This document shows positions 49,523-56,630 of a stretch of 64,000 nt of DNA, one piece after another; positions within the stretch are counted from its first letter, which is position 1; the number at the start of each line of letters is the position of its first letter. The translations under genes and the position numbers were made by a program. Location: NCBI GenBank assembly GCA_964019425.1, contig OZ025800.1, forward strand, positions 434,001-498,000. The letters are read 5' to 3'. Origin of the DNA: Flectonema sp. DT1601. Its lineage: Eukaryota. The notes beneath the pieces are model-generated. The model did no database searches, was not told where the DNA came from, and was given only the letters and a program-made list of their open reading frames with translations.

Positions 49523-49548
49523 TCTATACTCAACAGGAGGTCGAGAGT

Positions 49549-50298
49549 TTGCGTGCCGCGCGTCCCCGCATGACCCACTTTAGTCAACAAGTTTCCCCCC
49601 GAACCCCCGTTTTGTATGAATCTGTTGCTATGATGAAGATAGCAAAGAACTACCTCTCGCTCTTTACAACTACGAGTAGTCTTTTTACTCCTCTTATTAA
49701 ACCCCTTATCCCTACCCTTAATTATATCACCCCTCTTTGTCCTCTAGCCTCAATTCCTCCGACAATGCCGCGGAGTGAAGCTCTCGACCGCACGCCGACC
49801 AAGATTTTACGACAAGAGAGTCACGTTATCTCCGTTAAAGAGAATACACCTATTGCGAGACAATGGTCCGAGGGTAGGATTGACTTACTCGAGAATTACT
49901 GTCGAGCAGTAGATGACTCTCTCGAAACAAACGAGAAAGCGGCAGAGCTCTCAGAACAACTTTTGGATGCCCAACTTCGCCTCTCGGAGCTGAATCACCA
50001 ACGGTGTACAACTCACGCAGAGCAGCTTGAGCAATCCATGATGTTAACGGGACTGGCGAGCGATTTAAATGCTCAACTCGCCTTGGCACGGTCTCAAATT
50101 GCGGCCCTGAAGTTCCAATTAGCTTCATGGGCAGAAGGTTTGAGTCCGCCAGACACAGAAGAACATGAGGAAAATGAAACTCCGCCGAGAAAGTCTGAGC
50201 GTTCAACTCTGAAAAAACGGACCCCTCCATCAAGATATCGTTACAATCGAAGGAGATGTTCTGCTGATGACGTTCACGGTGACTCCACCCCCTTGTAA
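49549..50298 (+). CDS. Coiled-coil protein of unknown function inside the element (likely start MPRSEALD)
   Basis: The only substantial plus-strand ORF. Heptad-rich middle, then an acidic and a basic C-terminal segment. GC-richer than the flanks. Confidence 0.5.
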   Translation: MRAARPRMTHFSQQVSPRTPVLYESVAMMKIAKNYLSLFTTTSSLFTPLIKPLIPTLNYITPLCPLASIPPTMPRSEALDRTPTKILRQESHVISVKENTPIARQWSEGRIDLLENYCRAVDDSLETNEKAAELSEQLLDAQLRLSELNHQRCTTHAEQLEQSMMLTGLASDLNAQLALARSQIAALKFQLASWAEGLSPPDTEEHEENETPPRKSERSTLKKRTPPSRYRYNRRRCSADDVHGDSTPL

Positions 50299-51525
50299 TT
50301 CTCTTTTTCCTTACTTTCACATCATTTTGTTTATTTAGTTTTTTTAGCTTATTTATTATTTATTGTTCGTTTTTGTTTGTATTATTTTATCGATATGTTT
50401 ATGTCCGTCAGATCATAACGTTAATCAGGTTAATTGTTAATTGTTAATTATAAATGGTCTAAACCCCAATCCAAGTTCCCAAGGCTTGGCATAGATTTGA
50501 GTGACGCCTTACTGGCCTCCTCATCCTCTATGAGTGGTGAGGGGGCCAGCAATGGTTTTTTTTTTTTTTTTTCTCTTATTTCTTTTTTTCTTTTTCTTTT
50601 ACTCTAATATGAAATATTTTTGAACAAAATGTGATTATTAATTTAAAAAAAAAAAAATAAAATAAATAATGTAAATGAATAATAAAAAAAAAAAAAAAAA
50701 AAAAATATGCCTTGGGAATACAACCAAAGCCCCAATTAATCGGTCCTTTCTTTTTCCTTCTTGTCAAGTGATCGCTCCACTCGTCGATCACCAAAACCGA
50801 TTGTATTTATATCTGTTCTTTTCTCAACGATCGGCTATACCGATCATTTTTTTAAAATAATTGTTTTCTTCTTCTCGACGATCAGATCAAATTGATCGAC
50901 CTTTTTTTTTTTTTTTTTTCCTTTATTCCTTCCATCCCTCCCGCTCCCCTAATTTTAAATAAAAACAAGATCAGCTCAGCTTGATCGTTAATCTTTTTTT
51001 CTTTTTTAATTTAAACTGATTGTATTTATATCTGTTTATTTTTCTCAACGATCGGCTATACCGATCAACCTTTAAAATAATTTCTTCTTCTCGACGATCA
51101 GATCCAATTGATCAACCTTTTCTTTTTTTTTCCTCTATTCCTTCCATCCCTCCCGCTCCCCTATTTGTAATAAAAACAAGATCAGCTCAGCTTGATCGTT
51201 AATTTTTTTTCTTTCTTTTTTGTTGGTCCTAGTCAGGACCTTAAACTGACTAACCGGTCTTAATTTAAATAAGTGTTAACCTAGTTTCTCTTTTCCTTTT
51301 CATTTTCCTTTTAATACTCTCTATCTGGTCTGTTATGTCATATTTCTCAATTAATTTTATCATCCATTTTACTTTTCACTGTTTCCCATCTACATTTTAT
51401 TTTCAAATAGTTACGGTCTGTTAAAAAAAAAAAAAGTTTAAATAAGTTAAATTGAACATGTTAACTCAATTCCTCAATTCTTCCGTCATGGTCATGACAT
51501 TCTTTTTCGTTTTTCTAATGCACAA

Positions 51526-54318: not shown

Positions 54319-56047
54319 TGCAGGGCCTGCCTGTGGCATTATAATAACAGGCTAAGTCATTTGTAGTTCATAGTTTACCTTTGATTTTATAACTTCACAC
54401 AGGGTACTATGAACGATGAGAGATCCAGTGGGATCACTCAGGGTCTAGTAGAGACCACCAATGTTGTGCGTTGATAGGCAAGGTGACCAACCTTGACATT
54501 CTTTCTTTTCTCTCCTGTTGTGACAAACACAAAATACACACACAGCTTACAGTGTGTTCTTTGTGTATGTTTTCTTCAGGTGTGAGTAGTTTTTTTGTTC
54601 TTGCTCTTCAGGGAGGGCCTTAGCCAAAAGCTAACTGTCCAAATCTCACCTGGTAATTCAACTCAGTCCTTGTCAGTTTTGACATCAAACCTGTAATGGT
54701 TTAATCATTACAGGTTATTTACTGAAATATTTGTTCTAAAAGTTGCTAAGTATTTCTCACTTAGAAATTTTTTATTTTTTTATTTTCAGCTTAATTAGCT
54801 ACGAATTGTTTCTACTAAGTGTTTCTCACTTAGATTTTTTTTTGCTTTTCAGCTCCTTAAAAGCTGCTAAGTGTTTCTGCTAAGTGTTTCTCACTTAGAA
54901 TTTTATTTTTATGTTCGTTTTCTATCCCTTCTCCTATCCCTTTTGTTCAAAATAAGCGGGAGGAAATTCTCTCATTCACGCTAAGATGCACTCTGAACTT
55001 TGATTTTTTGATCTGAGTGTGAGGGAATGACCTGTTAGTGCATTGGGCATAGGCTGGGCTGCAGTTTAGATGTCTTAGGTGTTAATAGGGGGTTCCTCTT
55101 AGCATTTTTCTTTGTTCCCACCTTATGATTTTCTTGAAGGAAAAAAATAGAAGTCATAATGGTGCTTCCCTCTGGAAGGGTTGTAAGCCATGGTGTCCAA
55201 CTAAATTAAAGGACAAGTCTGGGATAATCCCTGCCAGAGGGGCGAGTATTCTACCATGGTTGAAATACTCTGGCAACTGATCTTCAATCTTATGTTGTTT
55301 GTTAGCTGCTGGTGTAATTTAATCATGTGTTGATACTTGCTTTTTTTATTTGTTATCTTTTACTACAATAACTCTTGCCTATATCTTTTCTTTTTATTCC
55401 CTATCTGTTCTGGTCTGTTGCTTCATTTGTCTTGTTTAACTTCAGTTATATCCATTTTACTTTTTATTGTTTCCCATCTACTTTTTATTTTCTATTAGTT
55501 CTGGTCAGAAACTCCTGGGCAGCAAGAAGGAAAGCAGTTTAGTACTTCTGGGTGTTTGGCATCACCCCCCATAGTGAGCAAGTACAACAGGTAGCATTGG
55601 TAGTCTGTTGATCCTGAGTGATCCCAGCTACAGTTTTGTTTTTCTTTCTTTTTTTTAGAAGAAGATCAGGACATCCAAGCACTGCTGGATAGTTGCTGAA
55701 TGCAGGGCCTGCCTGTGGCATTATAATAACAGGCTAAGTCATTTGTAGTTCATAGTTTACCTTTGATTTTATAACTTCACACAGGGTACTATGAACGATG
55801 AGAGATCCAGTGGGATCACTCAGGGTCTAGTAGAGACCACCAATGTTGTGCGTTGATAGGCAAGGTGACCAACCTTGACATTCTTTCTTTTCTCTCCTGT
55901 TGTGACAAACACAAAATACACACACAGCTTACAGTGTGTTCTTTGTGTATGTTTTCTTCAGGTGTGAGTAGTTTTTTTGTTCTTGCTCTTCAGGGAGGGC
56001 CTTAGCCAAAAGCTAACTGTCCAAATCTCACCTGGTAATTCAACTCA
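54319..56047. mobile_element. 1.73-kb CpG-poor insert with 347-bp direct terminal repeats (54319-54665 and 55701-56047)
   Basis: Apparently identical repeats starting TG and ending CA. The empty site AAAATAATTAAAAGGATTT is present near 59603-59621 and 62112-62130. No TSD and no long ORF. Confidence 0.65.
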
Positions 56048-56630
56048 AAAGGATTTAAAAAAAAAAAAAAAAAAAAAAAAAGAATAAACAATGTTATCAT
56101 TGTTTTTTTTTCTATCGATCGACTATGTCGATTAATTTCTATTTTCCGTCCTGATCGAGACACTAAACTGATTGTTTCCTTTTTTTTTAAATAATAAATA
56201 AAAAAAAAAAAAATAAAAAAAAAAAAAAAAAGAGCATCTCCCTGCTATCCCTCATATCCCCACAATAATATTATACCTTTTCATTTTCTCTTTCCTTTTC
56301 TGGTCTTTATTTTTTTTTTTTCCTTTTTCATACAACGTTTTTTTATTTATATATATTTTTTTTTTTTTTTTTCATGTTTGATTATTTCCTCTTCATATTT
56401 TTTTTCTTTTTTCTTTTCTTTCTTTTTTTTCTTTTTTTTCTCTGCCTCTCTCTTAATTCTGTTCGTTTCTTTGAAACGAAAATTCATTTGAATATTATTC
56501 CTTGGTCAGCAACCATCATTGTCGCCCTTTGGGCCTGTTAAAAAAAATAAAAAATAAAAAGAAAGTTTACATCGGGAATAGGGCAGGAGCCAAAAGCTCC
56601 CAGTCCGTTACTTCCCACTTTATCGAAATT

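Follow-up and report, generated by a model that had tools for sequence, protein, structure and literature searches.

A young mobile element with a fixed hairpin 3' end and variable 5' ends, possibly Helitron2-like, in a repeat nest of Flectonema sp. DT1601

The DNA analysed here is a stretch of 64,000 nucleotides from the eukaryote Flectonema sp. DT1601 (GenBank assembly GCA_964019425.1, contig OZ025800.1, positions 434,001 to 498,000; the whole stretch is hereafter called the window), the right third of which is occupied by a nest of repeats. This nest contains copies of an element with a fixed 3' end just past a hairpin and variable 5' ends, the longest of which (copy L) lies at 49523–56630 on the + strand. 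The element is real, mobile, young and lineage-restricted. A mobile family with such ends had been proposed in an earlier note on the window, and it is supported by junctions elsewhere: the same end recurs with other flanks in contigs of the sequencing runs X1 and X5 and in the database proteins P0003, P0036 and P0054. Junctions outside the window were read from database proteins and sequencing-run contigs rather than from loci, those in proteins being deduced from codons. As to how the element moves, we give an even chance to non-autonomous movement of a Helitron2-like kind, in which a rolling-circle (HUH) transposase provided from elsewhere in the genome does the copying.

The final 70 nt of the element are identical at four sites in the window, with ends at 47861, 56630, 60193 and 62702, all on the + strand and none on the - strand. 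Each end follows a 43-nt subterminal hairpin with a CAAAA loop (56574–56616 in L, and 47805–47847, 60137–60179 and 62646–62688, all +), recognised by folding and by pattern match; the pattern matched in none of 100 shuffles, and the four identical ends with hairpins described previously are thus upheld. The last 70 nt fold with z = -2.2 as DNA and -3.0 as RNA, weakening to -0.8 and -0.9 when 100 and 140 nt are folded. Also common to all copies is a 3' unique segment with a pyrimidine tract (56232–56630, + strand, in L), with 0–1 substitutions after homopolymer collapse.

The exact end had been placed 14 nt after the hairpin. That it is fixed proved correct, but the terminus lies one base (C) further, 15 nt past the hairpin, and reads ATCGAAATTC. 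The additional base was recognised at copy A, which is inserted in a reverse transcriptase (RT) gene. This site (site A) is spanned by 17 of the 27 RT relatives examined; a single residue separates MA from (I/S)TWK in every one of the 17, and in 15 it is Asn. At the junctions of copy A, the Asn codon is retained on the left and an Ala codon on the right. Since the intact relatives have one residue here, the C at 60194 is not host sequence and the element must include it. The terminal C is present at 60194, at 62703 and probably at 47862, and is missing from L.

Contigs of X1 and X5 align through 60194 and then depart from the window sequence, that of X1 into a variant of a 31-bp satellite, while the X2 and X3 contigs stop before the end. 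The X5 contig, of 1382 bp, has the hairpin at both its ends, which may reflect a tandem, a circle or a pair of neighbouring copies. In P0036 the 3' end appears joined to the element's own open reading frame (ORF), with a junction codon that requires the terminal C, and in P0054 the RT sequence passes into the element's end, read on the reverse strand, at a second position in the gene (site C), with codons that fit the terminal C. The end in P0003 reads one A shorter, and that in P0037 is trimmed by ~30 nt. Overall, the full end with C is found at six of nine independent 3' junctions (site A, copy 1, X1, X5, P0036 and P0054), L being shorter by one base. No poly(A) or short-repeat tail is present: the end abuts the host directly, and none of the nine junctions ends at an A run. 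Without its nested insert, L holds 15 A runs of at least 15 nt.

Searched as a DNA pattern with the window as positive control, the hairpin had no match in viral, metagenome and prokaryote collections, and Rfam returned only sub-threshold matches, none at gathering score; scans for loci by protein were empty as well. A single pattern match elsewhere (L001) was dismissed as chance, as it showed no blastn or tblastn similarity. The contigs were covered more deeply at the 3' end than across the ORF; depth cannot rank the parts of the element and was not used. At 60137–60194, the terminal four bases could pair with a tetranucleotide at the hairpin's foot, being its reverse complement; this may be chance, and it resembles the guide-and-cleavage tetranucleotides of IS200/IS605 ends.

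The copies in the window, all on the + strand, differ in their left ends, as previously reported, and all are 5'-truncated. Copy 1 (45631–47862) is truncated within the element's internal satellite, with a 3-nt overlap at its 5' junction. Copy L is truncated inside an ORF and sits in phase in the 31-bp satellite. Copy A (58352–60194) lies between two T bases of the RT gene (TGTT^T), with neither duplication nor loss. Copy C, whose 5' part occupies 63215–64000, is cut by the window edge; P0054 likely shows its 3' junction, and P0054 and P0064 probably belong to the window locus. Copy lengths range from ~57 nt (deduced from P0036) to >7 kb.

Copy B (60706–62703) has a different history. Positions 59071–61491 equal 61580–64000 base for base, an exact tandem duplication of 2509 bp, in which the end at 62702 shares its flank with that at 60193 and is therefore not an independent insertion. 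Copy B combines the 5' junction of C, including two extra bases (60704–60705), with the 3' junction of A, and the switch falls inside the satellite, which identifies it as a product of unequal exchange between the two. It was accordingly rejected as an independent insertion. To read it as a single insertion with a 510-bp target-site duplication (TSD) is disfavoured, because in P0054 the 3' end meets the RT directly at site C. The four copies counted earlier thus reduce to three independent 3' junctions in the window, and while one of the four did arise by local duplication, the element as a whole did not spread only in that way.

The longest copy begins with TC, which had been taken as a Helitron-like 5' end. 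However, L starts inside a frame of 260 codons, and contigs of X1 and X4 extend upstream of 49518 in the same reading frame, with bases for C-N-E-E-R-E-S-K-I-R. The X4 contig adds ~2 kb upstream, and the true 5' end lies >2 kb upstream of the available sequence; the long X4 pieces have zero differences from the window and may be its source, whereas X1 differs. The same upstream extension of the ORF is given by P0001, P0002, P0005 and P0030. Because the frame continues upstream in these other copies, the TC at 49523 is a truncation point and TCTATACT was rejected as a 5' terminus. The argument for a canonical Helitron falls with it, the right end not being CTRR either. Five bases at the 5' junction of L (49518–49522) fit both element and satellite; elsewhere, two bases were added at site C and 0–3 are shared at site A. 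An internal deletion in P0001 brings the ORF right up against the 3' unique segment. Inverted repeats within L were limited to A/T-rich chance matches, all in the nested insert.

The absence of a TSD, also claimed previously, holds for copy A (58351/60195) and for L (49522/56631), where the satellite stays in phase, but not for copy 1. A perfect direct repeat of 44–47 bp flanks the latter (left copy 45584–45630, right copy 47863–47909, + strand) and is likely a target duplication: the collapsed site is found exactly, over 86 bp, at 48066, and random register pairs in the 31-bp arrays reached 43 bp in 117 of 20,000 cases. It is likely rather than proven, as the same picture would result from deletion between higher-order units or from recombination of two insertions lying close together. 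If P0054 shows the end of copy C, any duplication there is no longer than a few bases. A T^T target could be read at A, L and P0003, but not at copy 1 or P0036, and C is ambiguous.

Database proteins point to a second family with a similar plan. Residues 1–127 of P0005 are common to 13 proteins (P0005, P0028, P0029, P0032, P0033, P0037 and P0040–P0046), 12 of which reach the motif APIPLP; ten go on to NFL and nine to NFLF, after which they diverge. Six of the 12 ends share one flank (P0044 with changed junction residues) and six have different flanks, while in P0037, P0032, P0040 and P0043 the match starts abruptly after unrelated sequence. The second family has a fixed right end and variable left ends. 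Its last 19 codons permit GGGAA, a 5-bp stem around CAAAA, and TTCCC, as do 6 of 35,736 control windows and 6 of 20,000 shuffles; ungapped identity to the window end is 36/57, equal to the best control window of that peptide and no better. Judged from the protein, this family likely ends in the same hairpin plan with changed stem letters. The two families also meet: P0005 carries a second-family copy within the cargo ORF of the first family, and in P0037 a second-family copy stands tail to tail with a trimmed first-family end. The flank formed by residues 1–66 of P0037 resembles a Polinton-type DNA polymerase B segment; Pfam gave no match for it.

The ORF into which L is truncated (49516–50298, + strand; a cargo ORF of which L keeps the 3' part, 260 codons) belongs to no known family. 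The part seen had no Pfam family above cut-off, no PDB sequence relative and no TnpB/Fanzor match. Weak Pfam matches and the ESM Atlas, which returned only generic coiled-coil or sub-0.9 matches, suggest that it is likely a coiled-coil protein. The AlphaFold model has a mean pLDDT of 34, and its first 127 residues belong to another element, making it unusable. Searched by profile, 1.84 billion representatives yielded 14 matches, five of them via the unrelated N-terminal part of P0005; three cargo matches form a subfamily ~50% identical, giving two subfamilies in all. None of 3289 candidates was a longer cargo form. Of the six differences seen in other runs, five are synonymous where 34% would be expected (P = 0.02), a weak hint that the cargo may be a working gene. 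Downstream of this ORF lie ~4.6 kb of non-coding, A-run-rich DNA.

That the element carries an internal satellite was confirmed, with repeat units of 110–160 bp at 51815–54316 (+), resuming at 56048–56231. The units in this and other arrays keep three small hairpins, vary mostly in the loops and end in long A runs; short and long units alternate as a higher-order repeat. Also inside the element, 50794–51217 comprises two tandem 216-bp copies (88%), in which GATC and TCGA palindromes are abundant. The satellite of L is interrupted by a nested insert (54317–56047) that is bounded by identical 349-bp direct repeats (54317–54665 and 55699–56047) and absent from copies A and B. It made no target duplication, about one base being lost, and 120 bp of it (55386–55506) are 77% like 51303–51418. 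The insert is likely mobile itself, since its right end recurs, reversed, in P0036.

Because no mobilising enzyme was observed, our confidence is spread over four readings of the mechanism. In the Helitron2-like reading introduced above, an HUH enzyme would recognise the CAAAA hairpin, nick at the terminal C and join that end to the target. Copying would then proceed back into the element, mostly halting early, and host repair would seal the free side through 3–5 shared bases or a few added bases, with target DNA sometimes duplicated; neighbouring copies could later recombine via the satellite to give copy B and the 2509-bp tandem. A sequence-specific nick at the DNA level is favoured because the end is base-exact and without a tail and the internal A runs are unused. 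Several points weigh against this reading. No RepHel or HUH gene was seen in the sequence examined (7.1 kb of L), nor was the true 5' end with its inverted repeat reached there. The T^T target rule of Helitron2 applies at only three of six readable targets, and two of the three truncated window copies with both junctions have no TSD, unlike the CRe-1/2/3 Helitron2 families considered below. The second-family hairpin rests on codon compatibility, not DNA, and the first-family hairpin folds somewhat better as RNA (z -3.0) than as DNA (z -2.2). Furthermore, LINEs equally show 5' microhomology and added bases.

A second reading is a tail-less non-LTR (non-long terminal repeat) retroposon, of the stringent LINE type or Penelope-like, which we hold to be possible although clearly less probable. 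Its RT would bind the 3' stem-loop of the RNA, start synthesis from a nick and frequently break off before reaching the far end, in keeping with the fixed 3' end and 5' truncation, the 3–5-nt overlaps, the two added bases, the single 44–47-bp duplication and the better RNA fold. According to excerpts of PMC4176376, it is through the loop that LINE proteins recognise a 3' stem-loop, and two families with the same loop on different stems would accord with this. Penelope-like elements show 5' truncation and partial tandems, and in many cases have no clear TSD (excerpts of PMC8557442), and LINEs are common in euglenozoans (excerpts of PMC10161547 and PMC12278014). Yet the element has no poly(A) or short-repeat tail, whereas CRE and INGI carry poly(A) (excerpts of PMC12278014), and its last ORF is not an RT and is followed by the ~4.6 kb of non-coding DNA. 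No RT/endonuclease ORF was present in the 7.1 kb seen, upstream of which the element continues, and the 3289 candidates included no longer proteins. L has no internal copy of the end, hence no pseudo-LTR. The + strand of 44000–64000 contains no hammerhead core, and Rfam gave no match at gathering score; this is a weak argument against a Penelope-like element, since Naiad/Chlamys are also without a hammerhead (excerpts of PMC8557442).

An undescribed one-ended class is a doubtful third reading. The two families, sharing a CAAAA-loop terminal hairpin, would make one-ended, base-exact moves, mostly without target duplication, through an enzyme other than a Helitron RepHel or a LINE/Penelope RT, and so outside both groups, for example a helicase-less HUH protein or the upstream part of the cargo gene. 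The end does fit neither CTRR nor the T-rich end of Helitron2, the targets obey no strict rule, and the cargo is rare (only 14 matches in 1.84 billion representatives, five through the second family's peptide, in two subfamilies ~50% identical); Replitrons provide a precedent for other HUH transposons with odd junctions (excerpts of 10.1101/2022.12.15.520654). However, every structural feature seen is covered by CRe-1/2/3 or LINEs, and no new enzyme was observed.

It is very unlikely that the copies owe nothing to dedicated transposition and are pieces of a repeated block with a fragile hairpin, multiplied through segmental duplication, gene conversion and break repair: this is how copy B and the 2509-bp tandem did arise, copies cluster in one repeat nest, and the X1 junction with a 31-bp satellite variant and the 6/12 second-family ends with one flank indicate that some junctions were amplified with their surroundings, but the insertion into the RT gene is base-exact and loss-free, the same terminal base meets unrelated flanks (satellite, two RT sites, the element's own ORF), and the second family likely has the same end plan.

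One-ended, 3'-anchored copying of the Helitron2 type was described, in the literature searched, by a single paper on a green alga, with Fanzor as its suspected cause (PMC3627910). If the Helitron2-like reading is right, the present element is a young example without a visible Fanzor, from another eukaryotic group and with near-identical copies in several strains, which would make the direction of Helitron2 copying and its junction chemistry testable. If a reverse transcriptase is the mover instead, the element would be a retroposon of an unusual kind, with ends exact to the base and no tail. With either mover, a satellite and an orphan gene would have spread through the repeat blocks that separate gene clusters, and an enzyme outside the Helitron and LINE groups would mean a new kind of eukaryotic transposon building satellite nests between gene clusters. 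No curated DNA transposon is known from trypanosomatids in the excerpts of PMC12278014, and for Diplonema the excerpts available only mention Helitron-like ORFs.

The surroundings of the nest are those of a eukaryotic genome. All 11 stop-to-stop frames of at least 220 codons between 6000 and 43000 are on the minus strand; in Diplonema, gene clusters likewise lie on one strand with repeat blocks between them (excerpts of PMC10161547). Taken together with the VIPER/TATE-like retroelement described below, this layout suggests that the host is a euglenozoan and probably a diplonemid. Among the host genes at 6981–39878, all on the - strand, are one for a GTPase resembling Rab7 (Pfam Ras) and a low-complexity frame of 2829 codons, and a tRNA-Val gene lies at 10940–11013 (+). 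A 2-kb tandem duplication (97.9%) at 1793–5795 contains short inverted repeats and a frame of 156 codons that belongs to no known family. Another element, at 42981–44830, has terminal inverted repeats of ~50 bp and an ORF (43481–44227, -) with a weak integrase-core match (E 0.01); the same terminal inverted repeat interrupts P0002.

Copies 1 and L are hosted by the 31-bp satellite arrays (44828–45630 and 47863–49522, also 56631–56916; +), and copies A and C by the RT-RNase H gene of a VIPER/TATE-like retroelement remnant (56917–60703, -). The remnant has 168-bp repeats (56917–57084 and 57359–57526) in a split-repeat plan like that in excerpts of PMC12278014. The spacer between them includes a tRNA-like stretch (~57237–57310) that ARAGORN did not call, and the remnant's own end also lies within the 31-bp satellite. 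For its RT, 21 related proteins were found, and more as cluster members, with numerous intact relatives of 1013 aa. The scant coverage of this host RT region in sequencing-run contigs proves nothing.

No published description of the element family was found in the literature searched, which took in few subscription papers and not Repbase. The element is not a Helitron1: it shares the hairpin near the 3' end, but not the TC start, the CTRR end (here ATTC) or the A^T target (T^T at site A). Tyrosine-recombinase retroelements of the VIPER/TATE type (excerpts of PMC12278014) also lack a TSD, but the element is without their split direct repeats and fixed 5' end. Stringent LINEs with a 3' stem-loop (ZfL2-1, ZfL2-2 and UnaL2), CRE/SLACS, INGI and Penelope-like elements have in common with it a fixed 3' end, 5' truncation, a stem-loop and variable TSDs, and differ in the features missing here, namely a tail, an RT (in the part seen), a hammerhead core and a pseudo-LTR. 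The HLE2/Helitron2/Helentron group (excerpts of PMC11417382 and PMC5148889) is closer, with a subterminal hairpin at the right end, no TSD at clean sites and, as at our cleanest site, T^T targets, although the element ends in ATTC rather than ATTTT, CCAA or CTRR. HLE2/Helitron2 elements and satellite carriers also resemble it in inserting into repeats and their own copies, and Paramecium Helitrons in the satellites and pyrimidine tract that separate their ORF from the right end (excerpts of PMC13085455).

The closest match is CRe-1/2/3 of Chlamydomonas reinhardtii, families of non-autonomous, Fanzor1-carrying Helitron2 with frequent 5' truncation, internal deletions, intact 3' ends and extra bases (PMC3627910). 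Their full-length copies lack TSDs and most truncated copies have them, of 7–19, 44, 50, 93, 242 or 443 bp where present, and insertion occurs after T-rich tetranucleotides, TGTT among them; the authors infer that copying begins at the 3' end, as it does in IS91 (PMC3627910). The earlier proposal of a new Helitron-like or retroposon-like family thus stands as regards a mobile family, but its combination of features was already known from these one-ended elements (PMC3627910). Both systems have a hairpin 3' end, 5' truncation, extra bases at 5' junctions, TSDs that are absent or variable (including ~45 bp) and a cargo that is not a transposase, and site A (TGTT^T) is among the T-rich targets listed for CRe-1/2/3. 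In contrast, the cargo here is a coiled-coil-like ORF rather than a Fanzor, a satellite is carried, truncated copies are often without a TSD, the T-rich target is only partly kept, and neither a partner Helitron nor a 5' end was seen. By analogy, the element may work like a CRe-type Helitron2, but we do not file it as a member.

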